A DNA stretch of 64,000 bases, taken from NCBI RefSeq assembly GCF_000341105.1, contig NZ_ANBB01000055.1:44539-108538 (forward strand), read 5' to 3'. The stretch comes from Nocardiopsis potens DSM 45234 (GTDB taxonomy: Bacteria; Actinomycetota; Actinomycetes; Streptosporangiales; Streptosporangiaceae). Position numbers and translations under genes: made by a program. Shown piece after piece: positions 7,981-62,739 of this stretch. Below the pieces are notes generated by a model, which was not told where the DNA came from, searched no databases, and saw only the letters and a program-made list of their open reading frames with translations. Position 1 is the stretch's first letter, and every line of letters begins with the position of its first letter.

Positions 7981-8046
7981 ACCGGGAGGAGCGGGCCCCG
8001 GCGGGGGCGCACCCCGCCGGGGCCCGGCCGGTTCCGGGGCTCCGGG

Positions 8047-10356: not shown

Positions 10357-10402
10357 GCGGTTTCCGTTCGGATGCAAGGGCGGGCGAGTGGAGCGGGCGG
10401 CT

Positions 10403-11604: not shown

Positions 11605-11745
11605 GGGCACTCTCCGAAGTTTCGTCGGTATGAGTCGCTGGTGGCCGCGGCCGCCGCGGCCACGACCGGGTGAGGGTGGGCGGCGGGCGGAGCTCCCCCA
11701 TGAGGTTACCCGCACCGGGGGGAGCGGTGGGCCCGCCCCCCGAGG

Positions 11746-12162: not shown

Positions 12163-12262
12163 GGGGAAGTCCTCACCGTCGGCCTCACTAGAGCGATGCC
12201 CGGGGACCGGTGGACGAAACGGAGCAAATGGAGCCGAACGGGTACCGCACGCCAATCGGGCG

Positions 12263-12505
12263 CTACTCCACCCGGAGCTCGAAGTCCTCGATGACCGGGT
12301 TGGCCAGCAGCGTCTCGGCGAGGCGGCGGACGTCGGCCAGGCGGGCCTCGTCGGCCTCGCCCTCGATCTCCACCTCGAACCGCTTGCCCTGGCGGACCTG
12401 CTCGACGCCGGCGAAGCCGAGGCGCCCGCAGGCGCCCACGATCGCCTGGCCCTGGGGGTCCAGGATCTCGGGCTTGAGCATGACGTCGACGATGACGCGG
12501 GCCAC
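12263..12505 (-). CDS. purS: Phosphoribosylformylglycinamidine synthase subunit PurS
   Basis: 80 aa from GTG at 12505 (VARVIVDVMLKPEILDPQGQAI...). Classical PurS size and KPxxLDPQG motif. Confidence 0.8.
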   Translation of the reverse strand: MARVIVDVMLKPEILDPQGQAIVGACGRLGFAGVEQVRQGKRFEVEIEGEADEARLADVRRLAETLLANPVIEDFELRVE

Positions 12506-12781
12506 GGGGTCCTCCACGCTGATTTGTCCGCTGGTGCCGCGCGGGCTGCGCCGCGCGGGAAAAGCGTACGGCACCGGTGTCCGGCCCGGGGCACGGGGCG
12601 GCCCCGGTCCGCCGAGGTCAGCGCGGTCGGATCCGGCCCCGGAGCGGCCGCGGCGGAGGGTGTCCTATACCGCATCCCGGGTCACGAAACGGCGACGATA
12701 CGGGCATCGGCGGCACCGAGTGACCCTTATCACCGCCAAAGGTGTCATCATTGCGCGCTAGTCTGCGCGTCTAACAGTTCG

Positions 12782-12795
12782 ATACCGATCGGTAT
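12782..12795. promoter_or_regulatory. Perfect 14-bp palindrome ATACCGATCGGTAT about 30 bp upstream of the ECF sigma gene; candidate operator or promoter element
   Basis: Seen directly in the sequence. It is embedded in an AT-richer stretch (TAACAGTTCGATACCGATCGGTATTGAAC) immediately 5' of the sigma-factor start. Confidence 0.4.
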
Positions 12796-12825
12796 TGAAC
12801 GGCCGGTCGTCTCTAAGGGGGAGTC

Positions 12826-13422
12826 TTGACGACCATCGAACTGGACCGCACCGAGCAGCAGAACGGCGAGACCGAGACCCTGGACTTCGCGACCGCGGTC
12901 ACCCCGTACGCCGACCAGCTCTACCCCACCGCGCTGCGGATGACCCGCAACGCCGCCGACGCCGAGGACCTGGTCCAGGAGACCTTCACCAAGGCGTTCG
13001 CCAACTTCCACCAGTTCCGCGCCGGCACCAACCTGCGCGCCTGGCTGTACCGCATCCTCACCAACACGTTCATCAACGGCTACCGCAAGAAGCAGCGCGA
13101 GCCGCGCCAGGACTCCACCGACGAGATCAAGGACTGGCAGCTCGCCGCGGCCGAGGCGCACAGCTCCTCGGGTCCGCGCTCGGCCGAGGCCGAGGTCCTG
13201 GACCACATGCCCGACTCCGGCGTCCGCGCCGCGCTCGCCGCGCTGCCCGAGGAGTTCCGCATGGTCGTCTACCTGGTCGACGTCGAGGGCTACCCCTACA
13301 AGGAGGTCGCCGCGCGGATGGGCACCCCGCTGGGCACGGTGATGTCCCGGCTGCACCGGGCCCGCCGTCAGCTCCGCGAGCAGCTCGTCGACTACGCCCC
13401 CGCGCCGCGCTCCGGCGAGTGA
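12826..13422 (+). CDS. sigE: ECF (group 4) RNA polymerase sigma factor, closest in sequence to mycobacterial SigE
   Basis: Sigma-2 region [46 protein letters not shown] closely resembles M. tuberculosis SigE. Sigma-4 region [39 protein letters not shown]. No anti-sigma gene is evident immediately downstream. Confidence 0.8.
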
Positions 13423-43784: not shown

Positions 43785-44897
43785 CTACTCCGCCCGGGTG
43801 AAGCGGATGTCGTAGTCCTCCGCCTCCGGGGCCCAGAAGCCCAGCAGGCGGGCTCCTTCCTCCATGACGGCTCCGCGGGTCTCGCCCTGGGCGGGGGTGA
43901 ACTCCTCGATGGTGAGGACGGCCGAGCCGCCCTGCTCGGCCACCCGCCACATGGCGCGGACCTCGCCGTCGACCAGGACGGTCGGGGCGACGACGGCGCC
44001 GATGCAGACGCGGCGGCGGACGTCGTCCCGCATGACCCGGGTGCGGTCGTGGTAGGCGACCAGCAGGTTGTCGAGTGCGGGCAGGAGGCGGACCGGCGCC
44101 TCGGCGTCCGCGGGGACCACCGGGAGGTCCGGCAGGTCGAACAGCTCGCGGCCGGCGTCGTCGGTGAAGGTGCGCAGCTCCGGGCGGAGGCCCTCGAACA
44201 CCTGCTGCGTCCGGCTCAGCCCCGACCAGGCGTGGAAATCGCGGACCGAGGCCGGGCCGAACGCCGCCAGGTAGCGGCGGATCAGGTCGGCCACCGGGCG
44301 TCCGGGCTCCATCGGGGCGCCCGTCCACTCCTCGGCCAGGGTGAACGGGGTGCGGCCGCTCCGGCCCCACAGCCCGCTCGGCGGTACGTGGACCAGCGGC
44401 AGCATCAGCTGCGCCAGCTGGCCCAGGGCGGTGCGGTCGCAGTCCGGCCACCGCTCGGCGAGCAGCCGGGCCAGTTCGGGGCGGGACAGGGTGCGGCCCG
44501 CGAGCAGCTCCGCGGCGATCTTGGCCGCCTCCTCCGGGTCGAGGCCCGGGCTGCGCTTGCCGAACGCGCCCCTCCAGATCCGCTCCAGGACCGGCTGGAC
44601 CAGCGGGCGGATCCAGCGGAAGTCCTCCGCGGCGGCCATGTGCTGGGTGCCGCGCAGGATCGACGAGCGCACCACCGCCCGGCCGTGCAGCAGCCGGGCC
44701 AGGTCGTCCTTCTCGAAGGCGGCCAGCCTGGTCCACAGCCCGACGTAGGGCGGGTTGGGCTCCTGGGCCTGCACGGCGACCAGGCGGCGCACCGCGTCCA
44801 GGGCCGAGCGCGGTTCGCGCCGCAGCAGCCACTGCCGCTCCAGCGCCGTCCGGTTGAGCGTCCGGCGGTCGATCCGATTCCCGCTGCCGTTCTCCAT
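43785..44897 (-). CDS. Winged-helix DNA-binding domain protein of the AlkZ/YcaQ family (putative DNA glycosylase for crosslink/alkylation damage)
   Basis: 370 aa. N-terminal LNRTALERQWLL... and a Q-phi-Q catalytic-type motif (VAVQAQEPN) as in AlkZ-like HTH_42 proteins. Confidence 0.6.
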   Translation of the reverse strand: MENGSGNRIDRRTLNRTALERQWLLRREPRSALDAVRRLVAVQAQEPNPPYVGLWTRLAAFEKDDLARLLHGRAVVRSSILRGTQHMAAAEDFRWIRPLVQPVLERIWRGAFGKRSPGLDPEEAAKIAAELLAGRTLSRPELARLLAERWPDCDRTALGQLAQLMLPLVHVPPSGLWGRSGRTPFTLAEEWTGAPMEPGRPVADLIRRYLAAFGPASVRDFHAWSGLSRTQQVFEGLRPELRTFTDDAGRELFDLPDLPVVPADAEAPVRLLPALDNLLVAYHDRTRVMRDDVRRRVCIGAVVAPTVLVDGEVRAMWRVAEQGGSAVLTIEEFTPAQGETRGAVMEEGARLLGFWAPEAEDYDIRFTRAE

Positions 44898-44960: not shown

Positions 44961-45725
44961 TCAGCCGGTGGCGTGGCTCAGCTCCAGGCCGAGCAGGGCG
45001 CGGGGCGGGACGCCGGCCAGGGCCCTGCAGTCCCGGTTCAGGTGCGGCTGGTCGGCGTAGCCGGCCATCGAGGCCAGGACCGACAGGTCGGTGGTGGCGG
45101 CGGGGTGCCGGGCCAGGCGGAGGAAGCGCTGCAGGCGGAGGATGCGGCGGAGCACCGCCGGGCCGTAGCCGAACGCGGAGGTGCAGCGCCGGTGCAGCTG
45201 GCGCTCGCTGAGCCCGGCGGCGCGGGCCAGCTCGGCCACCGGCGACGACGGGTCGTCGCCGAGCATCCCGGAGACCAGCGCGGCGGTCCGCGCCGACCCG
45301 TGCACCGCGGGCGGCGGCGGTACGGTGCGCAGCCGCTCGCGCACCCCGTCCTGGAGCAGGTGCAGCCGGTGCTCCGCGGTGCAGGCCGCGTCCATCCGCT
45401 CCAGCAGGATCCGCTGGGTGCGGGCGCCGAGCACGTCGGCCAGCTCGATCCGCCGGTTCAGCGACCCGGGGGTGTCCAGCCCCAGCGCGGCGGCGGCCAG
45501 CCCGGGGCGGAACCGCACCCCCACCGCCTCGGTCCCGGCGGGCAGCTCGAACGACCACCCGGAGGTCTCCGGCCCGCACACCACGATCCGGCCGGTGCTC
45601 AGCCAGAGCACGTCCACGCAGCCGTCCGGCACCAGCGTGTGCGCCCCGCCGGCGCGCGCGGTCCACCCGGTGGCCAGCTCCGCGGAGAGGTCGGCGGCCA
45701 CTGGGACCGGGGTGTACCAGGACAC
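44961..45725 (-). CDS. AraC-family transcriptional regulator
   Basis: C-terminal AraC HTH pair (ELARAAGLSERQLHRRCTSAFGYGPAVLRRILRLQRFLRLA...MAGYADQPHLNRDCRALAGVPP). Start assigned to the GTG at 45725 to avoid overlap with the upstream gene. Confidence 0.65.
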   Translation of the reverse strand: MSWYTPVPVAADLSAELATGWTARAGGAHTLVPDGCVDVLWLSTGRIVVCGPETSGWSFELPAGTEAVGVRFRPGLAAAALGLDTPGSLNRRIELADVLGARTQRILLERMDAACTAEHRLHLLQDGVRERLRTVPPPPAVHGSARTAALVSGMLGDDPSSPVAELARAAGLSERQLHRRCTSAFGYGPAVLRRILRLQRFLRLARHPAATTDLSVLASMAGYADQPHLNRDCRALAGVPPRALLGLELSHATG

Positions 45726-45732
45726 GGGGCCG

Positions 45733-46356
45733 CTACCCCAGCCCCATCGTGGGCAGAAGGCGCTCGAGGTCGGCGCTGATCGGGAACGGCAGGGAGACCT
45801 CGAGGCGCTTCCGGAAGACGCCCGTAGGCGCGTAGAGGCCCGTGGTGGCGTCCCGTTCATAGGTGTGCACCACCGGGACGTCGTCCTCGTTCTCCACCCG
45901 CCAGAAGTGCGCGATCCCCGCGCCCGCGTACTTGCCCGGCTTCACCTTGCGGTCCCGGTGCGCCGATTCGGGGGAGACGACCTCGACGGCGAGCGCGACG
46001 TCCGAGGCGGCGAAGCAGGTGCGCTTCGACTCGAACGGGATCGGGGCGAACAGCACGTCCGGCTCGGGGCGGTTGTACCGGTCGAGCTTGACGGTCATCT
46101 CGCGCTCCACGGTCGTGCCCTCCGGCGCCTGCCGCTTGAGCATGACGGTCATCGAGGTGACGGTCTGGCCGTGCCAGGACCGCTGCGGCGACATCATGAA
46201 GACGAGGGCTCCGTCGATGAGTTCGGTGTGCCTGGGAGCTTCGGGCAGCTTGTCCAGGTCTTCGGCGATCCACCCCTCGTCGCGGGGCGGATGCATCCAT
46301 CCCGGAAGCCCGCCCGGTCCCATCCCGGGGGCTGTGCATTCCGGCTGCGCGGTCAT
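45733..46356 (-). CDS. Uma2-family (DUF820) putative endonuclease, paralog 2
   Basis: Same conserved blocks as 39508..40107 (HTELIDG, EPDVLF, ALAVEVVSPES, AGIAHFWRVE). Confidence 0.7.
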   Translation of the reverse strand: MTAQPECTAPGMGPGGLPGWMHPPRDEGWIAEDLDKLPEAPRHTELIDGALVFMMSPQRSWHGQTVTSMTVMLKRQAPEGTTVEREMTVKLDRYNRPEPDVLFAPIPFESKRTCFAASDVALAVEVVSPESAHRDRKVKPGKYAGAGIAHFWRVENEDDVPVVHTYERDATTGLYAPTGVFRKRLEVSLPFPISADLERLLPTMGLG

Positions 46357-46437
46357 GCCTTCAGCGTAGCCTGCGGTGCCCTGCCGCGGACGGGAAAGAC
46401 GGGGCCGCCGGAGCGGCCCCGCCGGAGATCCGTCCGC

Positions 46438-49400
46438 TCAGCCCCGCTCCGGGCCCGGGAAGCGGTCCGCGGCGCGTTCGATGGCGGAGTGGACGTCGCC
46501 GACCCGGTCGGCGAGGAGGCCGACCGCGCCGACCGCGCGGGAGAGCGGGTCGTCATCGCCGCCCAGCGCCTTGGCGCGCAGGTGGCCGGCCTTCACCTCG
46601 GCCCACCGCTCCGCCTGCTCCGGGGTGAGGGTGCCGCGCAGCTCGCCCAGTTTGAGCAGGTTGGCCTCGGCGCCGGAGGTGAGGGTCTGCGCCTCGCCGA
46701 GGTAGTGGTCGTCGATCACCGCCTCCAGCTCGGCGTCGTTCATCACCGGCACCACCTTCTCCGCCAGCCGGTTCATGTTCCGGTAGGAGCCCTGCAGCCG
46801 GAACGGCGGCTCGGTGCGGGCGTCGTCGGAGCGCGCCGCGGAGGCGATGTAGGCCCGGTTGACGGCGAGCACCACCTGCTGCACCCGGAGCAGCTTGCCC
46901 AGCACCGCCAGGATCTGCTCCAGCTCCACCTGCGAGTACGGGTGGGAGAGCCGGTCCGGGCGGACCGAGTCGTCCCCGCCGGCCATCCGCACCAGCAGCT
47001 CGATGTCGCCGCGGTCCCGGCCGGACAGCGGCGCCAGCACCGGGTTGGCGGTCAGCGCGTTCTCGATGTAGCTGAGCGCGAACACGTCCTCCTTGCCGGA
47101 GAGCACGTCGCCGAGGTTGTACACGTCGGCCCGGTTGGCCAGCATGTCCGGGATCCGGAACCGCTGCCCCTGCTCGGTGTAGGGGTTGCCCGCCATGCAC
47201 ACCGCGAACCGCTTGCCGCGCAGGTCGTAGGTGCGGGTGCGGCCCTCCCAGACGCCCTCCATCCGGCGCTGGCCGTCGCAGAGCGAGATGAACTTCTGCA
47301 GCAGCTCCGGGTTGGTGTGCTGGACGTCGTCCAGGTAGAGGAGCACGTTGCTCCCCATCTCCAGGGCGAACCCGATCTTCTCCACCTCCTGGCGGGCGGT
47401 GGCGTCCGGCGCGTCCGCCGGGTCCAGCGAGGTCACCGCGTGCCCCAGCGCGGGGCCGTTGACCTTCACGAACACCAGGCCGAGCCGGCTCGCCACGTAC
47501 TCCATCAGGGTGGTCTTGCCGTAGCCGGGCGGGGAGATGAGCAGCAGCAGGCCGTTGTTGTCGGTCCGCTTGCCGTCCCCGGCCGAGCCCAGCTGCTTGG
47601 CCAGGTTGTCGCCGATCAGCGGCAGGTAGGAGTCGTCCAGCAGCCTGTTGCGGACGAAGCCGCTCATCACCTTGGGCGTGTACTCCTCCAGCCGCAGCCG
47701 GGACCGCTCCGCCTCGACCAGTCCGTTGCGGCGGCGCAGGTACTCCCGGAACGCCGGGGCGCGCTCCTCGCGGAACCGCCGGGTGCGCTCCAGGAACTCG
47801 TCCAGCCGCAGCTCCAGCCGGCGCTCCGCGATCCGCGGGTGCGTGCCGAGCAGCCCCTGCACGGTCGCGGACAGCTCGGTGGAGGAGTCGTACTGCTGCA
47901 CCTCGGCCCCGCACAGCTCCACCGCGACCGCCTCCTCCAGCACGTCGGCGGGGGGCGCGGCGCCGTCCAGCGTCGCCGCGTAGCCGCCCAGCCAGGCCGA
48001 GGCGAGCTGGTGCCGCTCGGCCAGACCGCCCAGCGCGGCCAGGTCGGCGGCGAACTCCTTGTGCGCCGCGGACGACGGGCCGCCCAGCGCCGCCCGGAAC
48101 CCCTCCAGCAGCGCGCGGGCCTCCGCGCTGGTGCCGAAGCCCGCCGGGGCCTGGGAGAGCTCCTCGAACAGGTAGCCGCCGGCCGCCGCCGCGGGCGCGT
48201 CCGGCAGCCCCGCCCCGCCGAGGAACGCGCCGATCGCGCCGGCCAGCTCGGCGCGGAGGGCGCCGACCGCCGGCGAGCCGCGCAGCCCGAACGCGTCCCG
48301 GGCCCGGGCCAGCGAGACCGCCCGGGTCCGCCACGGCTCCCGGGCCTCCGGCGCGGCGCCGAACGCCCAGAACAGCCGGGCCGCGGCGCGCGCCCGCGCC
48401 GGGTGCCGGAGCAGCCCGGCGGCGGCCCGCAGCCGCAGCACCTCGCGGAGGATCAGCGCGGCGTCGTGGTCGTGCACGCCGCGCTCGTACCCCTCGTCGT
48501 AGCGGGCCTCGGCGGCGGCGCGCACCAGGGGCGCCAGCGCCCCGCCGTCGCCCAGCGCGGCCTCGGACAGCTCCGCCACCGACGGGCCGTCCGCGCCCGC
48601 CTCGGCGTCCGCCAGGACCGCCGCGGCCAGGTACTCCGACCGGTACACCTCCGGCGACTCCGAGGGCAGCAACTGCTCCCAGAACTCCCGGGTGGCCTGG
48701 AACTCCGGGTCGCGCACCGGCTGCCGGAAGTCGGTGCCGGTCACCGTCACGGCCATCTCGCCCCGGTGCGGCACCATGGTCAGGTCGATCGGCTGGGTGT
48801 TGACCGCGAACCGGTGCCGGCCCAGCCGCAGCGTCTCCCCGCCGTCGTCGTAGAGGTCGATCCGGTCGAGCAGCGCCCGCCCGGCCTCCTGCCGGGCCGC
48901 CTTGACCCGGCCGTCCAGCTCCTCGGCGCGCACCGTGTCGCCCAGGCCGCGCAGCTCCTCGGCGGTCGAGCGGAGCTTGGCCACCATCGGGTCGGAGGCG
49001 AAGTAGGTGTTGACGTCGTCGACCGTCTCCAGGGCCGCGGCGCGGCGGCGCACCCCGGACAGGATCCGCTCGGCCGAGGCGGCCAGCCGGTCGGCCCGGC
49101 GCGCCCGCTCGTCCAGCAGCGCCTGCTTGCGCGCGGACAGCGCCTCGTAGACGTCCTCCCGCTTGGCGGACAGGTCGGTGAGGAAGTCGTCGAACTCGGC
49201 GAACCGCGACTCCAGGTTCTCCAGCCGCAGCATCAGCCGGCCGAGCTGCTCGTCGCAGGCGTCCGGGGTGCCGGCGGCGGCCAGCGCCGCGGTCACCGCC
49301 TGGCCGAGCAGCGCGAACTCGGCGGCGAACTCGGCGCGCCCCTCGGAGTCCATCAGCTCCCGGCGGCGCGCCTGCAGGGCGGCGCGGGCCCGGTTGACCG

Positions 49401-51456
49401 CCCCGGCCACCTCGCCGATCCGCTCCAGCACCGCGGTGCGCACCTGCGCGTCGCCGATGTCCAGGGCGCCGACGACCTCGGTGACCACCTCCAGGCCCTC
49501 GGTCTGCTCGGCCAGCCGGTCGGCCACCGGGGCGGCCCCGGCGACCGAGGAGATCGCCTCCGCCTCGGCGGCCAGCCGCTCCACCTCGACGTGGTAGGCG
49601 GCGAACGCCTCCTCGCCGCGGAGGAACTCCACCGCGCGCCGGCCGGTGGCGTCCAGCTCCTCGTCGAGCAGCCGCTGCAGGCCGTCCACCCGGTCGGCGT
49701 CGACGTGCCGCATCTCGCCGAGGGCCACCGCCCGGCCCTGCGCCCGGCGCAGCTCGGCCAGGAGGCCGACCCAGGCGTCGGCGGAGCCGCCGTCCTCCGC
49801 GCGGGCCCGGCGGACCAGCGCGGCCGCCTCCGCCTCGGCGGCGCCCATCGCCTCGGCCGCCTGCGCGGTCAGCGCCTGGACCTTCTCGAACTCCTCCAGT
49901 ACCTGCCCGGCGGTGGCGCGCACCTCCTGGACCGGGCCGGCCAGGGCGCCCAGCTCCTCCTCGCCGAGCCAGTGGTAGTGGTCGCCGAGCCGCCGGCAGG
50001 CGGCGATGAGCGCCTCGAACACCGCGGTGGACGGCGACATCTCGTCCACCATCCGGGTGACCGACAGGCAGTCGGAGATGCCGCGGACCAGGTCGGCGTT
50101 GCCGATCCGCTCCAGCGGGCCGGTGCCCGCGGGCTGCGCCGCGGCGTGCACGTCGGAGACGAACGGGGTGGCCCACACCTGCAGCGGGTGCACCCGGGTC
50201 GGCTCGTCGCCGGAGCTGCGGAACACCACCAGGGTGCCGTCGTCGAACAGCGAGTACCCGTGGCAGTCGATCGGGTTGGCGACCTCCTTGCGGATCACGT
50301 TGTAGGGCAGCAGCAGGCTGCGCCCCTCCGCGCGCCCGTGGAAGGCGTAGAGCACGTCCTCGCCGTTGGGCGAGCGGATGGTCCGCTCGAACTCCAGGTC
50401 GGCGATGTCGGTGTCGAAGGTCTTCACCGCGCCGGTGGCCAGGTAGCAGCCGCCGGGGAAGATGATGCCCTGGTCCTCGGGGAGCCGCCGGCAGGCCCGG
50501 CCGATCCCGTCGAGCCGGACCACCTCCTTGGTGCGGGTGTTGAACACCAGGTACCGGTGGTCGTCCTCGTTGTAGGGCCGGACCCGGAGCAGGACCAGCG
50601 GCCCCACCTCGGCGTAGTGCACCTCGGCGTCGGCCAGGCTCTGCAGCGGCTCGGCCACCGGCTCGCTGTAGACGCCCTCGCCGACCTCGGTGTTGTTCTC
50701 CACCTTGACGGTCAGGTCGCCGCCGACCGTCTCCACGAACACCTTCCCCCGGACGGAGATGTGCGGGTGGCGGCCGAGGACGTGGTCCTCCCGGGTGGTC
50801 TCGGTCCAGTCGAAGTCGTACGGGGACGGGAAGACGTGGTCCCTGTCGCCCCGGTTGTCCCGGTAGGAGACCTCGCCGCGGGGCGTGACCGACCAGCGCA
50901 GCACCCGGGTGTCGTCGGTGCGCGGCCCGGTCTGGAAGACCGCCAGCAGCCGCCCCTCGACCCGGCGCAGCTGCATCAGCCGGGTGTCCTTGTAGTAGCG
51001 GTACAGCTCGCCGAAGTCGCGGCGGAACCGGTCCTCGTCGAGCAGGCCGGGGAGTTCGCCGTGGCCGGCCTCGGCGAACCGGAACCCGTCGCCGCCGTGC
51101 TCCCGCTCGAAGGCGTGCAGCGCGAACACGTCGCCGACGGTGGTCTCCGGTTTGAGGCCGATGAACACGTTGTAGCCGAACAGCATCAGCCCGCCCACGG
51201 CCACGATGTCCCGCGGCACGCAGTTGTGCTCGGTGCGGATGCGCTCGGTGCCCAGCAGCCGCAGCTTGCTGGAGCCGAACACCTCCAGCCGCCGCTCGTT
51301 CAGCCGCTCGGCGCGCCGGGACAGCTCGGCCGCCTGCTCGGCGAGGCGGCCGCGGAGGACCTCGTAGGTCCCGGCGTCGAGCTCGGAGGCCGGGCCGGAA
51401 CCGGGGGCGGGGCCCTCCGCCGCGGCGGAGGGCCCGTCGGTCTGCACGTCGGTCAC
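46438..51456 (-). CDS. Very large (1672 aa) protein with a C-terminal AAA+ ATPase core; function unknown, coupled to the flotillin operon
   Basis: Single uninterrupted ORF. Walker A LLLLISPPGYGKTTLMEY, Walker B LLYLDDVQH, and sensor-1-like CMAGNP near residues 1270-1420. The first ~1250 aa are alpha-rich with no motif I can assign. Start is 7 nt downstream of the flotillin stop. Confidence 0.7.
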   Translation of the reverse strand: MTDVQTDGPSAAAEGPAPGSGPASELDAGTYEVLRGRLAEQAAELSRRAERLNERRLEVFGSSKLRLLGTERIRTEHNCVPRDIVAVGGLMLFGYNVFIGLKPETTVGDVFALHAFEREHGGDGFRFAEAGHGELPGLLDEDRFRRDFGELYRYYKDTRLMQLRRVEGRLLAVFQTGPRTDDTRVLRWSVTPRGEVSYRDNRGDRDHVFPSPYDFDWTETTREDHVLGRHPHISVRGKVFVETVGGDLTVKVENNTEVGEGVYSEPVAEPLQSLADAEVHYAEVGPLVLLRVRPYNEDDHRYLVFNTRTKEVVRLDGIGRACRRLPEDQGIIFPGGCYLATGAVKTFDTDIADLEFERTIRSPNGEDVLYAFHGRAEGRSLLLPYNVIRKEVANPIDCHGYSLFDDGTLVVFRSSGDEPTRVHPLQVWATPFVSDVHAAAQPAGTGPLERIGNADLVRGISDCLSVTRMVDEMSPSTAVFEALIAACRRLGDHYHWLGEEELGALAGPVQEVRATAGQVLEEFEKVQALTAQAAEAMGAAEAEAAALVRRARAEDGGSADAWVGLLAELRRAQGRAVALGEMRHVDADRVDGLQRLLDEELDATGRRAVEFLRGEEAFAAYHVEVERLAAEAEAISSVAGAAPVADRLAEQTEGLEVVTEVVGALDIGDAQVRTAVLERIGEVAGAVNRARAALQARRRELMDSEGRAEFAAEFALLGQAVTAALAAAGTPDACDEQLGRLMLRLENLESRFAEFDDFLTDLSAKREDVYEALSARKQALLDERARRADRLAASAERILSGVRRRAAALETVDDVNTYFASDPMVAKLRSTAEELRGLGDTVRAEELDGRVKAARQEAGRALLDRIDLYDDGGETLRLGRHRFAVNTQPIDLTMVPHRGEMAVTVTGTDFRQPVRDPEFQATREFWEQLLPSESPEVYRSEYLAAAVLADAEAGADGPSVAELSEAALGDGGALAPLVRAAAEARYDEGYERGVHDHDAALILREVLRLRAAAGLLRHPARARAAARLFWAFGAAPEAREPWRTRAVSLARARDAFGLRGSPAVGALRAELAGAIGAFLGGAGLPDAPAAAAGGYLFEELSQAPAGFGTSAEARALLEGFRAALGGPSSAAHKEFAADLAALGGLAERHQLASAWLGGYAATLDGAAPPADVLEEAVAVELCGAEVQQYDSSTELSATVQGLLGTHPRIAERRLELRLDEFLERTRRFREERAPAFREYLRRRNGLVEAERSRLRLEEYTPKVMSGFVRNRLLDDSYLPLIGDNLAKQLGSAGDGKRTDNNGLLLLISPPGYGKTTLMEYVASRLGLVFVKVNGPALGHAVTSLDPADAPDATARQEVEKIGFALEMGSNVLLYLDDVQHTNPELLQKFISLCDGQRRMEGVWEGRTRTYDLRGKRFAVCMAGNPYTEQGQRFRIPDMLANRADVYNLGDVLSGKEDVFALSYIENALTANPVLAPLSGRDRGDIELLVRMAGGDDSVRPDRLSHPYSQVELEQILAVLGKLLRVQQVVLAVNRAYIASAARSDDARTEPPFRLQGSYRNMNRLAEKVVPVMNDAELEAVIDDHYLGEAQTLTSGAEANLLKLGELRGTLTPEQAERWAEVKAGHLRAKALGGDDDPLSRAVGAVGLLADRVGDVHSAIERAADRFPGPERG

Positions 51457-51463
51457 GCGCCGA

Positions 51464-53482
51464 TCACCGCTTCGCGCCGTCGAGGGCGGCCAGCGCGGCC
51501 ACGCTGTGGTCGGCGACGCCCAGCTCGCGGGCGGTGTCCAGGAGCCGCTGCAGCTTGTCCGACTCCGGCGAGCCGCCCCGGATCAGCTTGACCAGCAGCG
51601 CGGAGACGGTGAGGTTCTTCAGGTCGGCGGTGTCCACCGAGCCGAGCAGCCGGGACAGGTCGGCGGTGAAGTCGGACTCGCCGTTCAGCCACGGGCCGGC
51701 CAGGTTCTGCGCGACCTCGGAGTTGCCGACGAAGCCGTCCACCGCCTTGCCCAGCCCGATCGAGTTGACCATCCGGTCGAAGAACATGCCGTCGCCGCCG
51801 ACGATGTTGATGTCGGCGTTCTCCAGGCCGGTGGCGAGCACCGTGGCCTGCGCCTCGGCGACCTGCCGGTGCACGTCGATGCCGGCCAGGCGGACCTCCT
51901 TCTCCGCCTCCAGGCGCAGCCGGTACTCCTCGTGCTCCCGGCTGACCTGGTCCAGCGCGGCCATCGCGCCGGCCTTGTCGTTCAGGCCCTCCGCCTCGGC
52001 CTTGAGCTTCGCGGCGATGGCCTCGGCCTCGATCGCGGCCTTCTCCCGGGCGACGGTGTTCTCCGCGCGGCCGACCTTCTCCACCGCGGCGGCGTCGGAC
52101 TCGCGCACCTGGACGGCGGCCAGGCCCTCCGCGGCGGCCTCGGCCTGCTTGCCCTCGGCCAGCCGGATCTGGGAACGGGCGTCCAGGTCGGCGGCCTGCT
52201 GCCGGGCCTCGGCCAGGGTGAGCTCCTCGGCGGCGCGGTGCTTGGCCGCCTCCTCCGCGGCCTCGGCGGCCTTGATGTCCTTGACCAGGTTCTCCTGCGC
52301 CTCGGCCTCGGCCTTGATGACGATGGCCTGGCGCTCCCGCTCGGCCTCCTCGACCGCGCGCAGCCGCTTGATCGCCTCCTCCTGCTCGGCCACGGTCCTG
52401 TCCACCGCGACCCGCTCCCGGATGACGTCGGCGACCTCGCGCTTCTCCGCCTCGACCTCCTTGTCCTTGGCGATCGTGGAGAGCTGCACCTCGCGGTCGC
52501 GGGCGACGACCTCCAGCAGCCGGTCCTTCTCGATCCGCTCCGACTCCACCGCGATGACGCGCTCGCGGTTCTTCTCCGCGACGGCGATCTCGCGCTGCTG
52601 GTTCTCCCGCTGCACGCCGAGCTGCTCCTCGGTGCGGAGCTGGGCGGCGCGCGCCTTGAGCGTCTCCTCGGCCTGGACCCGCTGGGTCTCGGCCTCCTCG
52701 CGGGCCTGGATCGTCTCGATCTCGCGCTTGGCGCGGGCCTTCGCCTCGGCCTCCTGGCGCTCCAGCTCGGCCAGGGTCTCGGCGGTCTCGGTGTCGCTCC
52801 GCTTGATCTCCTTGTCGCGCTCGTTCTCCAGCTCGTTGGTGCGCCGGTGCTGGAGGGCGGTGCGCTCGGTGATCTTGGTGATGCCCTCGGCGTCGAGGAT
52901 GTTGTTCGGGTCGTGCTGGTCCAGCGGGGTCTGCTTGAGGTCGGCGATGGCCGCGTCCTCCAGGACGTAGCCGTACAGGTCGTTGCCGATGACCTCGACG
53001 ATCCGGTCGCGGAACTCCTTGCGCTGGGTGTAGAGGTCCTCGAAGTCGAAGTACTTGCCGACGGTCTTCAGCGCCTCCTCGAACTTGGCGTCGAAGAGGT
53101 CCTGCAGCTTCTCCTGGCTGCTGGCGTTCTCCACGCCGATGTTCTTGGCGACCCGCAGGATGTCGGTCTTCTCCGGGTTGACGCGGATGAAGAACTTGAT
53201 CCGGATGTCGGCGAGGATGTTGTCCTTGCAGGTCAGAGCGTTCCTTCCGGAGCGCTCCAGCAGGATGGACTTCTGCGAGATGTCCATCAGCTCGGCCTTG
53301 TGCAGCACCGGGAGGACGACCGCGCCGGTCAGCGTCACGTCGACATCGCGGACCTTGGAGATGATGAGCGCCTCACCCTGCTTCACCTTGCGGAACAGGC
53401 GGATGAGGATGATCGGGAGCACGATCGCGATGAGGACGAGGGCGGCGATGAGCACACCGCCGGCGATGCCGATGGCTTCCAT
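51464..53482 (-). CDS. Flotillin-family SPFH-domain protein (FloT-like) with a long Ala/Glu-rich coiled coil
   Basis: N-terminal TM helix then SPFH domain (ALIISKVRDVDVTL..., ADIRIKFFIRVNPEK) and extended EA-repeat coiled coil. 672 aa. Confidence 0.9.
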   Translation of the reverse strand: MEAIGIAGGVLIAALVLIAIVLPIILIRLFRKVKQGEALIISKVRDVDVTLTGAVVLPVLHKAELMDISQKSILLERSGRNALTCKDNILADIRIKFFIRVNPEKTDILRVAKNIGVENASSQEKLQDLFDAKFEEALKTVGKYFDFEDLYTQRKEFRDRIVEVIGNDLYGYVLEDAAIADLKQTPLDQHDPNNILDAEGITKITERTALQHRRTNELENERDKEIKRSDTETAETLAELERQEAEAKARAKREIETIQAREEAETQRVQAEETLKARAAQLRTEEQLGVQRENQQREIAVAEKNRERVIAVESERIEKDRLLEVVARDREVQLSTIAKDKEVEAEKREVADVIRERVAVDRTVAEQEEAIKRLRAVEEAERERQAIVIKAEAEAQENLVKDIKAAEAAEEAAKHRAAEELTLAEARQQAADLDARSQIRLAEGKQAEAAAEGLAAVQVRESDAAAVEKVGRAENTVAREKAAIEAEAIAAKLKAEAEGLNDKAGAMAALDQVSREHEEYRLRLEAEKEVRLAGIDVHRQVAEAQATVLATGLENADINIVGGDGMFFDRMVNSIGLGKAVDGFVGNSEVAQNLAGPWLNGESDFTADLSRLLGSVDTADLKNLTVSALLVKLIRGGSPESDKLQRLLDTARELGVADHSVAALAALDGAKR

Positions 53483-53670
53483 ACGGGGCTGGTCTCCCTA
53501 CCTGCCGAGGGGATGAGTGCGGCGGGCCGCGGATCCGGTGCGGGAGCGAGCGGCGGGGCGGGCCCCGGGGCCGCTCTGCTCGGTTCCGACCCACCGGGTG
53601 CGACGCGGCCGGGCACCCCCCGGTTCCGCGTCCCGCCTGGCCGCAAGCGGCCTCGGGGGAACCAGGGGGC

Positions 53671-54318
53671 TCAGGATTCCCCGGGGTCCAGGGCCGGATC
53701 GAACCGGGAGACGCGGAAGAAGCCGGCCTTGGCGTCGTGGTCGAAGATCAGCGCGGTGTCGCCGGAGGCGAGCGGCTCGTCGTCGATCGTGCGCACCTGG
53801 ATGAGCATGGTCGAGCCGTCCCCGGAGACCACCTCGGCCTGCCCGAACTCGCGGTCCACCCGCAGGGTGCGCACGGTGCAGGTGCGCCCGACCAGCTCGC
53901 CGGAGGTGCGCGCCGCCCGCACGCCGGGGAGGAATCTGCGCACCCCCATGACGATGCCGCTGGTCACGCCCCAGGCCAGGGTGGCGGCGATGATCAGGGC
54001 GAGGATGCCGAGGACGATGAGGACCGGGGTGGACAGCGACCCCGCGAGGGAATCGATCACGACGTTCCCAACCAGGCTGAAGAACCAGGCCAGCGCGATG
54101 AGCAGGGACAGGGAGACGGTGGCCGGCACTCCGCGGAGCCCGACGGCGCCGAGCAGCGCGGCCGGGCCGGGCCCGTCGCCGTCCCCGGCGTCGGAGTCGA
54201 GCAGGCCGACGTCGAGCGCGCCGAGCAGCGCCAGCACCCAGTAGACCAGTACGGCCGCCATGGCGAAGGAGAACAGGGCCGTGGGGAACCCCAGTGCCGC
54301 GTCGAGGAACTCGCCCAT
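53671..54318 (-). CDS. NfeD-like/YqiJ-like membrane protein (flotillin-associated)
   Basis: Three to four TM helices followed by a C-terminal OB-fold-like soluble beta domain (TCTVRTLRVDREFGQAEVVSGDGSTMLIQVRT). Genomic position immediately upstream of flotillin. Confidence 0.65.
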   Translation of the reverse strand: MGEFLDAALGFPTALFSFAMAAVLVYWVLALLGALDVGLLDSDAGDGDGPGPAALLGAVGLRGVPATVSLSLLIALAWFFSLVGNVVIDSLAGSLSTPVLIVLGILALIIAATLAWGVTSGIVMGVRRFLPGVRAARTSGELVGRTCTVRTLRVDREFGQAEVVSGDGSTMLIQVRTIDDEPLASGDTALIFDHDAKAGFFRVSRFDPALDPGES

Positions 54319-54388
54319 GCTCCGCCCCGCCGCTCCCTCCGGCTTCCGGCGCACCGCCCGGTGCGGGCGGTGCGGATGCCCGACGACC

Positions 54389-55366
54389 TTATAGGAGGCC
54401 CTCCTGCCGGGCCGAAGCCGCCCCGTCCGCTGACCGGAACCGGCCGCGGGACGGCCGGCCGGGCCGGGCCGGGCGGCGCCCCCGGGGACCCTCCCGGCCG
54501 CCGCCCCGGGCGGGGAGGCGGCCGTCCGGCACCGACATCAGCGCGATGCCGTAGGCGGCGAGCATCCCGCACAGCACCGCGATCCCGGCGCCGGTCCACC
54601 CGGCGGTGTAGGACTCGCCCATGAAGGCGACGCCGACCGCGGAGGCGGCGACCGGGTTGGCGACGGCGGTGACGCCGAGCGGGGCGCCCAGCTCCATGCC
54701 CTGGTAGGCGGCCTGCGCCAGGAGCAGGCCGAGGACCGCGATCGCCGCGGTGCCGCACGCGGCGGGGTGCAGCAGGAACGCGGCGCCGTCGGCGGCCGCC
54801 ACCGCGATGGCGGTCTTGGTGGTCGCCGAGGCCACCCCGAATGCGGTCCCCGCGCCGGCCCCGAGCAGGCAGCTGCGCATTCGGAGGGAGGACGCCCGCC
54901 CCGCGGCCCAGGCGAGGCCGCTGATCAGCACCAGGGCCCCGACCACCACGGCCGCCGAGGTCCAGGCGTCCATCGGCCGGCTCCGGCCCCCGGTCACCGC
55001 CGCCCACAGCAGCAGCGCCAGCGCCAGCACGGTGAGCACCGCGCCGCGCCACTCCCGGGGCGTGACCCGCCGCCCGCCGAGCCGCGCCGACCACGGCAGA
55101 CCGAACACCAGGACCAGGACGCCGAGCGGCTGCACCACGGTCAGCGGCGCGAAGGCCAGCGCCGCCACCTGCAGCCCGGCCCGCCCCGCGTTGAGCACGG
55201 CCGAGGTCCACCACAGCGGGTGCCGCAGCAGCCGCGACAGCGGCCGCCCGCCGGTCAGCGGCTCGGGCAGCGCGACGGCCAGCCGCCGCTGCGCCACGGC
55301 CGCGGCGCTGTAGCAGGCCGTGGAGAGCACGCCCAGCACGATCCCGATCCAGATCCCGATCTCCAT
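54389..55366 (-). CDS. Integral membrane protein (about 10 TM), hypothetical
   Basis: 325-aa highly hydrophobic ORF. Ends 70 bp upstream of the NfeD-like gene on the same strand. Confidence 0.5.
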
Positions 55367-55627: not shown

Positions 55628-55720
55628 AACCGTGGCATCGGGGGGCGCGGCCGCCGCAGGGTGGGAGGACCGGACGCGGTGGGCGGGTGCCCGCCGCAGG
55701 GCCGGGGCGAGGAGGAGCAC

Positions 55721-56409
55721 ATGCTTGCGGACACACTGCGGGCGACCGCGGAGGCCGGCCCGGTCGGCGGCATCGACGACCAGATCGCGACGCGGCTGCT
55801 GCACGGCCGGATCGTGCTGCTCGGCGCGGCCGTGGACGACGCGGTCGCCAACCGGGTGAGCGGGCAGCTGATGCTGCTCGCGGAGGAGGACCCCAAGCGG
55901 GACATCATCCTGCTGATCAACAGCCCGGGCGGGTCGGTCACCGCCGGGATGGCCATCTACGACACCATGCGGTTCATCCCCAACGACGTGGCCACCCTGG
56001 TCATGGGGTCGGCCTACAGCATGGGCCAGTTCCTGCTCTGCGTGGGCGCGGCGGGCAAGCGGTACAGCCTGCCGCACGCGCGGATCATGATGCACCAGCC
56101 CTCCGGCGGGCTGGCCGGGACCGCGGCCGACATCGCCATCCAGGCGGAGAACCTGGCCTACACCAAGAAGACCATGCAGCGGCTGATCGCCGAGCACACC
56201 GGCCAGAGCCTGGAGCGGGTCGCCGAGGACCAGCGGCGGGACCGCTGGTTCACCCCGGAGCAGGCCGAGGAGTACGGCTTCATCGACAAGGTGGTGGAGA
56301 GCGTCGCCGACATCGGCGGGGACACCGCGCGCCGGTTCGGCTTCGGCGCCCCGGGCGGCGTCGGCATGGCGGTGCGGCAGGCGGCGGACGCGAAGGGAGC
56401 GGGCGAATG
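55721..56409 (+). CDS. clpP: ATP-dependent Clp protease proteolytic subunit (ClpP paralog, first of a tandem pair)
   Basis: ClpP fold with Ser (GSAYSMGQ), His (MMHQPSGG) and Asp residues. RBS GAGGAGGAG. Stop overlaps the next start (ATGA). Confidence 0.9.
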
Positions 56410-57015
56410 AGCACCTACACCGTGCCCACCGTGGTGGAGCGGCGGCCGGACGGGGAGCGCGCCTACGACGTGTTCTCCCGGCTGCTCGCGGAGCGGATCA
56501 TCTTCATCGGCACCCCGATCGACGACGGGGTGGCCAACGTGGTGATGGCCCAGCTGCTCCACCTGGACCACGAGAACCCGGAGCGGGACGTCCAGCTCTA
56601 CATCAACTCGCCGGGCGGCTCGAACACCGCGCTGACCGCCATCTACGACACCATGCAGTACGTCCGCTCCGACGTGGCCACGGTGTGCATGGGGCAGGCG
56701 GCCTCGGCCGCCGCGGTGCTGCTCGCGGCGGGCGCGCCGGGCAAGCGCGCCGCGCTCCCGCACGCCCGGGTCCTGCTCCACCAGCCCTCCACCGAGGGCC
56801 AGGGCGAGGCCGCCGACCTGGAGATCCAGGCCGCGGAGATCCTCCGGGTCCGGTCCCAGATCGAGGACATCCTCGCCCGGCACACCGGCCAGAGCACCGA
56901 GCGGCTGCGCGAGGACACCGACCGGGACAAGATCTTCACCGCCGCCCAGGCCGAGGAGTACGGCCTGATCGACGGGATCATCGAGGCCCGCTCCCCGGCG
57001 GCCCGCGCCGCCTGA
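56407..57015 (+). CDS. clpP: ATP-dependent Clp protease proteolytic subunit (second ClpP of the pair)
   Basis: [24 protein letters not shown]. Classic clpP1P2-like (or clpP3P4-like) bicistron. Confidence 0.9.
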
Positions 57016-57195
57016 CCCGAGTCCCGCACCGCCCCGCCCGCGGGCCCCCTCCCCGCGGGCGGGGCGGTGCGCGCGGTCCCGGGCGTTCTGCCGTGCGCAG
57101 AACGGGGCGGCACCCCATGGCGGGGGAGGGGGCCCGGAACTATCGTCGGGGGGACGACGGACCCGAGCACCGCGCCGAGCACAGCGGAGGCACCC

Positions 57196-57642
57196 ATGAC
57201 CGAGCGCGTCCTGCGCCCCGTTCTCGACGAGGCCGCCGAGGACGGCGCGGAGCAGCGCCCCGGCGGCTTCCCGGTCGGCTTCTCCCTGCCCGGCGGGGCT
57301 CCCCGGCCCGCGCCGCCGTCCGAGGAGCAGGACGACGAGCCGCTGATGCGCGAGGCGGTCGGCGCGCTGCTCCGCCGGGTCCGCCTGGAGCAGGGGCGGA
57401 CGCTGCGCGAGGTCGCCGACGCCGCCCAGGTGTCGCTGCCCTACCTCTCCGAGGTCGAGCGCGGCCGCAAGGAGCCGTCCTCCGAGGTCCTCGCGGCGAT
57501 CCGGCGCGCCCTCGGGCTCCGGCTGATCGACCTGATCGGCGGCCTCCACCTGGACCTGGCCTCGGCCGAGGCGATCCCGTCCCGCCCGTCCGCCGGCGCC
57601 GCCCGCTTCGGCGGCCCCCGCGCCCTGCTGCTGGCCGCCTGA
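57196..57642 (+). CDS. XRE-family HTH regulator of the ClgR/PopR type (ends in Ala-Ala)
   Basis: HTH RTLREVADAAQVSLPYLSEVERGRKEPSSEVLAAIRRALGL. The C-terminal ...LLLAA-COOH resembles the ClpP-dependent degron of ClgR/PopR. Immediately downstream of clpP-clpP. Confidence 0.65.
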   Translation: MTERVLRPVLDEAAEDGAEQRPGGFPVGFSLPGGAPRPAPPSEEQDDEPLMREAVGALLRRVRLEQGRTLREVADAAQVSLPYLSEVERGRKEPSSEVLAAIRRALGLRLIDLIGGLHLDLASAEAIPSRPSAGAARFGGPRALLLAA

Positions 57643-58312: not shown

Positions 58313-60919
<2,607 letters not shown>

Positions 60920-61027
60920 CTGTTCGCCGCCCCCTTCACGCGAATCATCGAACGGTCGTGCAAATCGGTCCGGGCCGGGGCGCACCGGCGCCCCCGGCCG
61001 CCGCGCCGGCCCCGCCGAGGGGGCCGG

Positions 61028-61486
61028 TCACTCGCCCTGGTCGCCCTGCCCGTCCTGGGGGCGGCCCGGGTGCGCCGCGGGGTTGAAGATGGTCACCCGG
61101 GTGCGCCGCACCGGGATCAGCTCGCCCCCCTTGGGGCGGGGCGCGCCGCCGCGCCGGGCGACCGCGCTGCGCGCCGCCTCCAGCTCGTTGTGCAGGTGGA
61201 ACACGGTCTCCCGGAGCTCCTCCACCTCCTGCTGCAGCTCCAGGATCCGCTTGATCCCGGCGAGGTTGATGCCCTCCTCCTGGGAGAGCCGCTGCACCTC
61301 GCGGAGGAGCCGGATGTCGCGCATCGAGTAGCGCCGGCCGCGGCCGGAGGTCCGGCCCGGACGGACCAGGCCCAGCCGGTCGTACTGGCGCAGCGTCTGC
61401 GGGTGGAGTCCGGAGAGTTCGGCGGCGACCGAGATCACGTAGACCGGGATGTCGTCGCCGACGCCGCCGTAGTTCATCGTGTTCAC
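61028..61486 (-). CDS. hspR: Heat-shock repressor HspR (MerR family)
   Basis: VYVISVAAELSGLHPQTLRQYDRLGLVRPGRTSGRGRRYSMRDIRLL matches the HspR HTH. Located downstream of dnaJ as in the dnaK operon. Confidence 0.9.
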   Translation of the reverse strand: MNTMNYGGVGDDIPVYVISVAAELSGLHPQTLRQYDRLGLVRPGRTSGRGRRYSMRDIRLLREVQRLSQEEGINLAGIKRILELQQEVEELRETVFHLHNELEAARSAVARRGGAPRPKGGELIPVRRTRVTIFNPAAHPGRPQDGQGDQGE

Positions 61487-62643
61487 GCTCCCTTGGCCCG
61501 GGCCTCCAGCCCGCGGCGCGGATCCTGGTCGGAGGTGGCGGCCCGGTACTTCTCCAGCGCCTCGCGGGCTTCGCTCCCGAGGTTCTGCGGCACCTGCACC
61601 TCGACGGTGACCAGCAGGTCGCCGAGGGTGCCGTCGCGGCGCCGGGAGCCCTTGCCGCGCACCCGCAGGGTCCGCCCGCTGGGCGTGCCCGGCGGGATCT
61701 TCACGGTGACCGACACCCCGTTCATCGTGGGCACCCGGATGTCCGCGCCGAGCACGGCCTCCGGGAAGGTCACCGGGACGGTGATGGTCAGGTTCTCCCC
61801 GGACTTGCCGAACACCGGGTGTTTCTGCACGTGCACCACCACATAGAGGTCTCCGGCCGGTCCCCCGTTCTCACCCGGCGCTCCCTTCCCCGCGATCTTG
61901 ATCCGCTGGCCGTCGGAGACGCCGGCGGGGATGCGGGCCTGAATCCTGCGGGTGCTCTTGCCGCGCCCGCTGCCGCTGCAGGTCGGGCAGGGGTCGTCGG
62001 TGACCAGACCGCGCCCCTTGCACTCGCTGCACGGCTCGGACAGCGAGAAGCCGCCCAGGTTCTTGCTCTCGTGGCCGGTGCCCGCGCACTTGGGGCAGAC
62101 CTTCGGCGCGCTGCCCGCCCGGGCGCCGCTGCCCTTGCAGGTCGGGCAGGCGGCGTCGCTGCTCAGCGCGAACGACCGGGTGACGCCCTCGGCCGCCTCG
62201 TTGAAGGTCAGCGTGGTCTCGGTCTCCACATCGGCGCCGCGCCGCGAGGACGCGGACCGGCCCCGCCCGCCGAACAGCCCGCCGAACAGGTCGCTCAGCC
62301 GCTCGCCGCCGCCCGGCGTGCCGGTCCCCCCGCCGCCGGCCCCGCCGAACAGGTCCCCGAGGTCGAATCCGCCCGCACCGGTTCCCCCGCCCGGCCGGTA
62401 AGACCCGCCGAACAGGGAGCGGGCGTCGTCGTACTCCTTGCGGCGCTTCTCGTCCGACAGGACGCTGTAGGCCTCGGAGATCTCCTTGAAGCGCTCCTCG
62501 GCCTGCGCGTCGCCGGTGTTGGCGTCGGGGTGGTTGGCGCGGGCGAGCTTGCGGTAGGCGGACTTGATCTCGTCCTGGGACGCCGACTTCGAGACTCCGA
62601 GGACCTTGTAGTAGTCCTTCTCGAGGTAGTCCTTGGTGCTCAT
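61483..62643 (-). CDS. dnaJ: Molecular chaperone DnaJ
   Basis: J-domain with HPD (ANHPDAN), Gly-rich region, four CxxCxGxG zinc-finger repeats. Stop overlaps hspR start. Confidence 0.95.
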   Translation of the reverse strand: MSTKDYLEKDYYKVLGVSKSASQDEIKSAYRKLARANHPDANTGDAQAEERFKEISEAYSVLSDEKRRKEYDDARSLFGGSYRPGGGTGAGGFDLGDLFGGAGGGGTGTPGGGERLSDLFGGLFGGRGRSASSRRGADVETETTLTFNEAAEGVTRSFALSSDAACPTCKGSGARAGSAPKVCPKCAGTGHESKNLGGFSLSEPCSECKGRGLVTDDPCPTCSGSGRGKSTRRIQARIPAGVSDGQRIKIAGKGAPGENGGPAGDLYVVVHVQKHPVFGKSGENLTITVPVTFPEAVLGADIRVPTMNGVSVTVKIPPGTPSGRTLRVRGKGSRRRDGTLGDLLVTVEVQVPQNLGSEAREALEKYRAATSDQDPRRGLEARAKGA

Positions 62644-62739
62644 CGACGCGTGCCTTCTCCCGCTTCCGAGTCCGCTGTGTCCCGCTACCGGCGTCCCCCG
62701 CCCCGGGCGCGGCCATGCGCCCGGGGCGGGGGACTTCTC

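Follow-up and report, generated by a model that had tools for sequence, protein, structure and literature searches.

A stretch of 64,000 nucleotides (nt) from Nocardiopsis potens DSM 45234 (contig NZ_ANBB01000055.1, positions 44,539 to 108,538; hereafter the window, in whose own numbering all positions are given) carries a gene for a small YqiJ-like membrane protein, followed on the same strand by the genes for a YqiK-type flotillin and for a giant soluble ATPase, an arrangement that recurs widely as a three-gene module and of which this locus is an unexceptional example. The best explanation of the module, which we hold with modest confidence, is that the ATPase is an ATP-driven remodeller of the assemblies formed by flotillin and its YqiJ-like (NfeD-type) partner, with or without PspA, on the cytoplasmic face of the membrane. 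What we have in hand for this is the genes and their motifs, a near-obligate linkage across phyla, a recurrent linkage to PspA, and the presence of a soluble ATPase beside membrane-anchored partners. That the three genes are associated was already known from published comparative genomics, and the proteins are routinely annotated; what is gained here is that the three-gene unit is defined, that the name "DNA repair" is found to be unsupported, that a module of the flotillin is put forward as a testable docking site, and that the actinomycete loci are connected to an operon associated with the phage-shock protein (PSP) system and to the bac operon of Pseudomonas aeruginosa, where genetics exists.

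The window has a guanine-plus-cytosine (GC) content of about 74%, and the gene layout was established from a listing of its open reading frames (ORFs) and their translations. Four ORFs follow one another on the minus strand with spacings of 70, 188 and 7 nt: gene 1, a DMT-family transporter (54389-55366, 325 amino acids [aa]); gene 2, the YqiJ-like small membrane protein, which is the first of the conserved trio (53671-54318, 215 aa from its ATG); gene 3, the YqiK-type flotillin, of the SPFH/Band-7 group (51464-53482, 672 aa); and gene 4, the giant soluble ATPase with a DUF3686-DUF7902-AAA+ architecture (46438-51456, 1672 aa, uninterrupted). These are the same four genes, with the same coordinates and gaps, that had been put forward in the original prediction, made from the sequence alone, and both the ORFs and their translations bear them out. 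The tight coupling that it had seen between flotillin and ATPase is also real; the 7-nt junction (51457-51463, minus strand) reads TGA-tcggcgc-GTG. The third-position GC is 0.94-0.99 in the three downstream frames, with 0.99 in that of the ATPase, and we therefore take all three to be real genes. An alternative GTG start of gene 2, 12 codons upstream (extending it to 54354), is possible, and the ATG start is supported by a 95%-identical homologue that is also 215 aa long. A plus-strand ORF of 2136 aa that lies antisense to the ATPase gene (45181-51591) was rejected as a high-GC artefact, the third-position GC of the minus strand being 0.99.

The conservation of the unit was followed in 80 genomic loci (50-77% identity; Actinomycetota, Myxococcota, Acidobacteriota and one Clostridia metagenome-assembled genome [MAG]) and in a further 80, from metagenomes, that belong to a distant branch (with its seed they share about 31-39% identity), all ORFs of which were searched with hidden Markov models (HMMs) for the three proteins; with two look-up loci (L001 and L002) the close set comprises 82 loci. 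Each of the 78 close loci with enough upstream sequence has flotillin immediately before the ATPase on the same strand, including three that were first flagged negative owing to an over-extended start call of the ATPase. The same holds for 68 of 71 such loci in the distant branch, and thus for 146 of 149 overall; in one distant locus (L161) a nuclease gene is inserted between the two. The YqiJ-like gene precedes flotillin in 102 loci, with all three genes in the same order, and most of its apparent absences in high-GC genomes are ORF-calling artefacts, as comparison with tblastn indicates. Elsewhere the flotillin and ATPase genes frequently overlap by 4 nt or stand a few nt apart. Starting from two flotillins, a DUF3686 ATPase was found directly downstream each time. 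The same trio was seen on look-up in Hoyosella and Micromonospora, and in annotated records of Deinococcus, Proteus mirabilis and the Pseudomonas fluorescens megaplasmid pQBR103. Loci showing the linkage come from Actinomycetota, Myxococcota, Acidobacteriota, Deinococcota, Bacteroidota and Gammaproteobacteria. In addition, loci whose flotillin is more identical to that of the window tend to have a more identical ATPase as well (r=0.67, n=78). The genes flanking the trio vary from genus to genus: clustering of 1662 flanking ORFs yielded no further neighbour in more than about 10% of the loci, the recurrent ones being, for the distant branch, PspA and DUF2170 and, for Streptomyces, a regulator of the PucR type. 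The conserved unit is therefore made of three genes, YqiJ-like, flotillin and ATPase. ATPase and flotillin are co-conserved nearly throughout, and neither a frameshifted or missing ATPase ORF nor a lack of co-conservation, which the original prediction had named as refuting outcomes, is seen; the operon, proposed as four genes, shrinks to three, since its first gene, for the transporter, is found elsewhere only in N. halophila.

A second line of evidence comes from PspA. In six metagenomic loci a DUF2170 (YjfI) gene and then a PspA gene (PF04012, 1e-41) stand directly before the trio on the same strand. PspA is adjacent without a clustered DUF2170 in three more loci, either on the opposite strand (L103) or with one short, unassigned ORF intervening before the YqiJ-like gene (L115 and L131). 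On pQBR103 (L164, NC_009444.1, 1-12091), the trio follows PspA and polyamine-related genes, a context that joins two PSP neighbourhoods listed separately by Ravi et al.; the genes present there are PspA, rhomboid, DUF2491, DUF350, DUF1190 and glutathionylspermidine synthase.

The gene order itself has been described by Ravi et al. (mSystems 2024, PMC11237479), as an operon running from YqiJ/YuaF through a Band-7/flotillin protein to an ATPase with beta-propeller, coiled-coil and AAA parts; they tied this Band-7/flotillin-AAA+ operon to the phage-shock (PspA) envelope-stress network, and found abbreviated operons without PspA to be widely distributed. The supplement of the same paper shows this order in Dokdonia donghaensis (ANH61663.1 neighbourhood). 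Our locus shares with that operon the gene order and strand, and an ATPase with a beta-rich N-terminus, a helical or coiled-coil region and a C-terminal AAA+ module, but differs from it in lacking the genes for CesT/Tir (DUF2170), PspA and phospholipase D; as PspA and DUF2170 are missing, it represents the abbreviated form. The ATPase is given no Pfam name in the paper, and from its architecture and context we infer that it belongs to the DUF3686 family. A six-gene version of the module appears to be the bacABCDEF operon of P. aeruginosa (PA3732-PA3727; Wallart et al. 2024, PMC10948618; its flotillin, PaFlo3, in PMC13086221), the "biofilm-associated cluster", which encodes in order the DUF2170 protein BacA, the PspA homologue BacB, the short NfeD protein BacC (PA14_16160), PaFlo3 as BacD (PA14_16180), an "ATPase" as BacE (PA3728), and BacF. 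It is transcribed as one unit with a sigma-54 site, its products are up 6-13-fold in a bacA mutant, and PA3728-PA3732 are induced in phage-infected P. aeruginosa. By gene order and published annotation, bacC-bacD-bacE correspond to the window trio, whereas the operon as a whole differs from it in having six genes, in its dependence on sigma-54, in its proteobacterial host and in the presence of PspA; the phenotypes were measured for bacA, bacB and paFlo3, and not for the ATPase. The view that the locus could not be mapped onto any characterised system thus has to be abandoned.

The ATPase belongs to a defined family. Residues 44-495 (49972-51327, minus strand) match the whole of PF12458, DUF3686 (profile positions 1-448 of 448, E=6e-218, 724 bits where the cut-off is 25), and PF25472, DUF7902, is matched by residues 616-700 (E=2e-28, 98.8 bits where the cut-off is 26), so that the first 1250 or so residues, which had been thought to carry no motif that could be placed, are in part assigned. 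DUF3686, DUF7902 and AAA were found together in 24 of 24 diverse family members tested, and hydropathy analysis gave no transmembrane (TM) segment. A homologue search returned more than 5900 relatives, at about 70% identity across actinomycete orders. The top 120 are 67-97% identical, of full length and from several actinomycete orders, the best match being that of Nocardiopsis sp. CNT-189 (97% identity), and nearly all of them carry the name "DNA repair ATPase" from the Prokaryotic Genome Annotation Pipeline (PGAP), some members being called "MoxR-like ATPase" by the Joint Genome Institute (JGI). When the first 1200 residues were searched exhaustively, 1378 clusters (50% identity) were recovered, with E<=1e-30 for 460 of these; the full-length members mostly measure 1600-1900 aa, and named representatives come from Nocardia (58% identity), a gammaproteobacterial MAG (39%) and Aureibacter tunicatorum of the Bacteroidota (27%).

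The C-terminal AAA+ module (residues ~1296-1600, 46657-47571, minus strand) matches AAA_5 with 31.1 bits (cut-off 22) over residues 1304-1429 and the generic AAA model with 25.6 bits, also above its cut-off; both models match 24 of 24 diverse members, and the lead of AAA_5 is slight. The Walker A, Walker B and sensor motifs that had been read from the sequence are all present in the translation. Walker A, SPPGYGKTT (K1314), fits the GxxxxGK[ST] consensus, and its PPGYGKT is invariant across the family. Walker B, LYLDD (D1376-D1377, 47326-47331), is followed by an invariant QH and has DD, not DE, down to about 27% identity: both aspartates are invariant, and the canonical hhhhDE with its catalytic glutamate is absent across the aligned family. 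Candidate sensor or arginine residues are likewise invariant, namely N1424 (MAGNP), R1442 (ANRAD) and R1559 (QGSYRNM), in a part of the AlphaFold2 (AF2) model where the predicted local distance difference test (pLDDT) falls below 50. As ISPPGYGKTT, LLYLDDVQH and CMAGNP are invariant or nearly so down to about 27-30% identity, we take ATP binding, and probably hydrolysis, to be under selection. Sequence and profile searches of the PDB returned no solved homologue matching beyond the P-loop.

The overall picture drawn from structure prediction is of an N-terminal helix, a beta-rich head, a spectrin-like rod, a middle helical domain and an AAA_5-like C-terminal motor. The AF2 model of residues 1-620 is only moderately confident (mean pLDDT 62.7); in it a long N-terminal helix (27-60) leads into some 26 beta strands (residues 81-422), after which come helical bundles. 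The beta-rich head is probably a beta-propeller: Foldseek matches of the N-terminal model are weak (best E=1.4e-3, TM-score at most 0.23), and the top 50 were judged to be mostly beta-propellers (GH130, GH43, Ctf4, prolyl oligopeptidases, Kelch and WD40), while a profile self-comparison with hhalign gave no internal repeat in the region. A rod of predicted spectrin-like three-helix bundles (residues ~450-870, 48847-50109, minus strand) includes DUF7902 (49357-49611). The model of residues 621-1672 (pLDDT 77.8) shows, after these bundles, a small beta unit, a helical domain, the AAA+ core, partly of low confidence, and a helical C-terminus; the alignments behind these models drew on homologues at least 67% identical, which limits their depth. 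The middle helical domain contains, well away from the AAA+ core, the family-invariant motif RYDEGYERGVHDHDA (residues 985-999, 48460-48504, minus strand), of the form EGYxRGVHDxDA. Its G993, H995 and D998 do not vary in an alignment of 24 sequences reaching down to about 30% identity, nor in a second alignment. It could be a metal-, ligand- or partner-binding site. Many distant loci (for example L089, L097 and L115) have an ATPase ORF that runs 100-250 codons past the region aligned to the query (in L089 the ORF occupies 7953-13274 and the match ends at 12827), which suggests a C-terminal extension specific to distant lineages.

The flotillin is, to judge by its similarity to a known protein, a true YqiK-type one. 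With E. coli YqiK it shares 27% identity across 428 aa (BLASTP E=7e-31, residues 16-438), an alignment covering the TM segment, the SPFH region and the coiled coil, and is laid out as an N-terminal TM segment (residues 1-34), the SPFH region, a coiled coil rich in alanine and glutamate (residues ~200-540) and a C-terminal module. PF01145 is present in its homologues, which go by the name of flotillin or YqiK; for the window protein no Pfam match at E<=0.1 was obtained, and its match to NCBIfam FloT (1e-5, 24.7 bits) is under the 700-bit cut-off. Comparison of HMMs sets apart the C-terminal module (residues ~460-672, 51467-52105, minus strand). The actinomycete flotillin HMM aligns to the ATPase-linked flotillins of the distant branch through position ~650 of 669, and its C-terminal piece alone (positions ~460-667) finds them with E=1e-56 to 1e-102, whereas E. 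coli YqiK aligns only up to position 443, the module not being detected in it. The E. coli yqiJ-yqiK and Bacillus subtilis yuaF-floT pairs (NfeD-type protein plus flotillin) correspond to genes 2 and 3; in the E. coli operon yqiK is not followed by an ATPase gene, and YqiK is without the C-terminal module of ATPase-linked flotillins. The module is a candidate docking region for the ATPase.

The protein encoded by gene 2 has about three TM segments (hydropathy 7-42, 58-92 and 85-126) followed by a soluble, beta-rich C-terminal part, and its close homologues, the 95%-identical one among them, are named "DUF1449 family protein". It has no match in Pfam or NCBIfam, NfeD included, and a scan of 24 homologues gave nothing significant, one of the 24 matching YqiJ_N at 0.024. 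A profile of 24 sequences (A2) aligns co-linearly with E. coli YqiJ, if marginally (hhalign E=8e-4, probability 24%), and missed both YuaF and PH0471 when compared with the PDB. From its topology, this marginal profile match and the names of its homologues, we regard the protein as YqiJ-like, and membership in the NfeD family as plausible. Hence, of the NfeD-flotillin pair that had been proposed for the locus, the flotillin stands on its match to YqiK, while the NfeD label finds no support in Pfam or NCBIfam and is replaced by a YqiJ-like one.

Taken together, these features can be assembled into a mechanism. Anchored by its N-terminal TM helix, flotillin would build, with its YqiJ-like partner, an oligomeric SPFH scaffold on the cytoplasmic face of the membrane; translational coupling would fix the ratio of ATPase to flotillin; and the beta-rich head and rod of the ATPase may dock on the C-terminal module carried only by ATPase-linked flotillins. 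Hydrolysis of ATP would then drive assembly, disassembly or some other remodelling of the flotillin scaffold, and at loci with PspA the ATPase may also act on PspA polymers, which are of the ESCRT-III type, during membrane stress. Coupling of an AAA+ protein to a membrane-remodelling polymer has precedents in Vps4/ESCRT-III of archaea and eukaryotes and in PspF/PspA, where the two are genetically coupled, as the trio is linked to PspA in several lineages. Bacteria appear to be without a Vps4-like ATPase for PspA (reviewed in PMC7619361), and for this missing motor an obvious candidate is an ATPase of about 1650 aa whose gene, across at least six phyla, nearly always stands right behind that of flotillin. 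One might go further and speculate that the DUF3686 ATPase is a dedicated remodeller of flotillin scaffolds and, wherever PspA occurs, of PspA/ESCRT-III polymers, that is to say a Vps4/NSF counterpart docking on the flotillin module, but in this specific form the proposal is tentative and we think it rather doubtful. If true, flotillin microdomains would be actively turned-over structures and not passive scaffolds.

Several observations weigh against the remodeller. Contact of the ATPase with flotillin, YqiJ or PspA is something that we infer, and instead of the scaffold the ATPase might have client membrane proteins as its substrate. The DD of Walker B may make hydrolysis slow or regulatory; the AAA+ core is poorly modelled, with pLDDT below 50 around Walker A and sensor-1, and the assignment of the head as a beta-propeller is, on these models, weakly supported. 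The window contains neither PspA nor DUF2170. In L092 (4111-9657) and L136 (7998-13235) the ATPase stands alone with no flotillin in the sequenced flank, and it can thus evidently exist unlinked from flotillin; its neighbours there are instead a hybrid histidine kinase or a Cache-domain Ser/Thr kinase. PA3728 is equated with DUF3686 by gene order and annotation, and the P. aeruginosa paFlo3 mutant makes only about 20% less biofilm.

The question of the substrate leads to the main rival, which is that the ATPase is a MoxR-like chaperone that inserts, extracts or unfolds client membrane proteins in a flotillin/NfeD microdomain, the scaffold serving only as a platform, as HflK/C does for FtsH. 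Literature precedent exists in the SPFH cage that houses an AAA+ machine, in FtsH-HflK/C, and FtsH-HflK/C and the prohibitin-m-AAA protease pair an SPFH scaffold with an AAA+ protein at the membrane, as does the trio. The likeness is one of analogy only, however, as FtsH is membrane-anchored and carries an M41 peptidase, while the ATPase of the trio is soluble, peptidase-less, three times larger and encoded in a flotillin operon, which has a single flotillin gene and not a paired HflK/HflC. HflK/C also face the periplasm, the cytoplasm being the side presumed for YqiK-type flotillins. The best Pfam AAA model, AAA_5 with its 31.1 bits, is related to dynein and MoxR, and the JGI name of some members points the same way; the ATPase nevertheless has no match to the NCBIfam MoxR models, and the conserved unit holds no vWA gene, protease or other client-handling partner, nor is there a conserved client gene nearby. 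A module specific to ATPase-linked flotillins fits direct coupling to the scaffold, though it is silent on the substrate. Ravi et al. (PMC11237479), for their part, propose a chaperone-like role for Band-7 proteins in the assembly of membrane complexes. We consider this explanation unlikely, if deserving of serious attention, and the present data do not separate it from a remodeller of the scaffold. Either way, the idea of an energy-driven membrane-associated machine, with which the original prediction had closed, is still the best reading of the locus.

Two further explanations fare worse. Defence systems commonly employ large NTPases that carry sensor domains, and the locus might be an anti-phage or conflict system in which the beta-rich head senses infection while the AAA+ motor and flotillin act on the membrane. 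The rise of PA3728-PA3732 in phage-infected P. aeruginosa would agree with this, as would the copies found on megaplasmids (pQBR103) and on plasmids of Deinococcus and Streptomyces, yet induction by phage is also what is expected of a phage-shock-type response to membrane stress. A search of the four proteins against PADLOC-DB 2.0 gave only P-loop-level matches to IetA and mad8 (E>=0.0026), and 2.9 million viral contigs contained no relative. Moreover, identity tracks taxonomy (Nocardiopsis 97% for the nearest and 68-77% for the others, Streptomonospora about 73%, Streptomyces 55-64%, Myxococcota about 50-55%), which suggests vertical inheritance, and the flanks consist of housekeeping genes and not of defence islands; we therefore judge a defence function to be improbable. 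Still less credible, to our minds very much so, is the function for which the databases name the protein, a DNA repair ATPase whose adjacency to flotillin would be incidental. The name comes from the Pfam description of DUF3686 and from the PGAP product name, and the reading could draw on a weak P-loop match to RuvB_N (E=0.0024 over 45 residues), seen also in 11 of 24 family members, with NCBIfam values of 0.0006-0.002 that are far below the cut-offs, or on the AlkZ-like DNA glycosylase and Uma2 nuclease genes downstream in the window. But Pfam, NCBIfam and PDB searches detected no DNA-binding, helicase or nuclease domain in the 1672 aa, a literature search brought up no mention of DUF3686 and no pairing of "DNA repair ATPase" with flotillin, and the AlkZ and Uma2 neighbours are not conserved, the conserved partners being membrane proteins.

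The surroundings of the trio in the window are specific to the lineage. Gene 1, upstream, encodes a DMT-family transporter (NCBIfam DMT_1, 8e-23) that is found beside the cluster in N. halophila (L069), the nearest of the relatives examined, and in no other; it is a Nocardiopsis neighbour outside the conserved unit. Downstream of the ATPase lie the genes for the Uma2-family putative endonuclease (45733-46356, minus strand) and the AlkZ-like DNA glycosylase (43785-44897, minus strand), which, beside a gene named "DNA repair ATPase", could mislead annotators. Further upstream are a stand-alone ClpP paralogue (55661-56410, plus strand), a ClgR-like helix-turn-helix (HTH) regulator (57067-57642, plus strand), ClpB (58313-60985, minus strand) and DnaJ (61483-62739, minus strand). 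ClpP, the sole proteostasis gene compared across loci, occurs elsewhere in N. halophila L069 only. As operon members, the DMT, Uma2 and ClpP genes were rejected on the grounds that outside the window they are found in N. halophila alone, and the AlkZ-like gene on the grounds that it is in no locus outside N. halophila. The ClgR-like regulator matches NCBIfam ClgR at 7.6e-26, under the equivalog cut-off. In mycobacteria ClgR controls clp genes and the pspA operon, and one can conceive of a regulatory tie between this neighbourhood and the flotillin trio. A PucR-type regulator (GGDEF_2 plus HTH_30) is encoded upstream of the trio in 16 of the close loci, in most cases on the other strand, as represented by Streptomyces L068 (6266-7345, minus strand), and this protein is a candidate for a local regulator.

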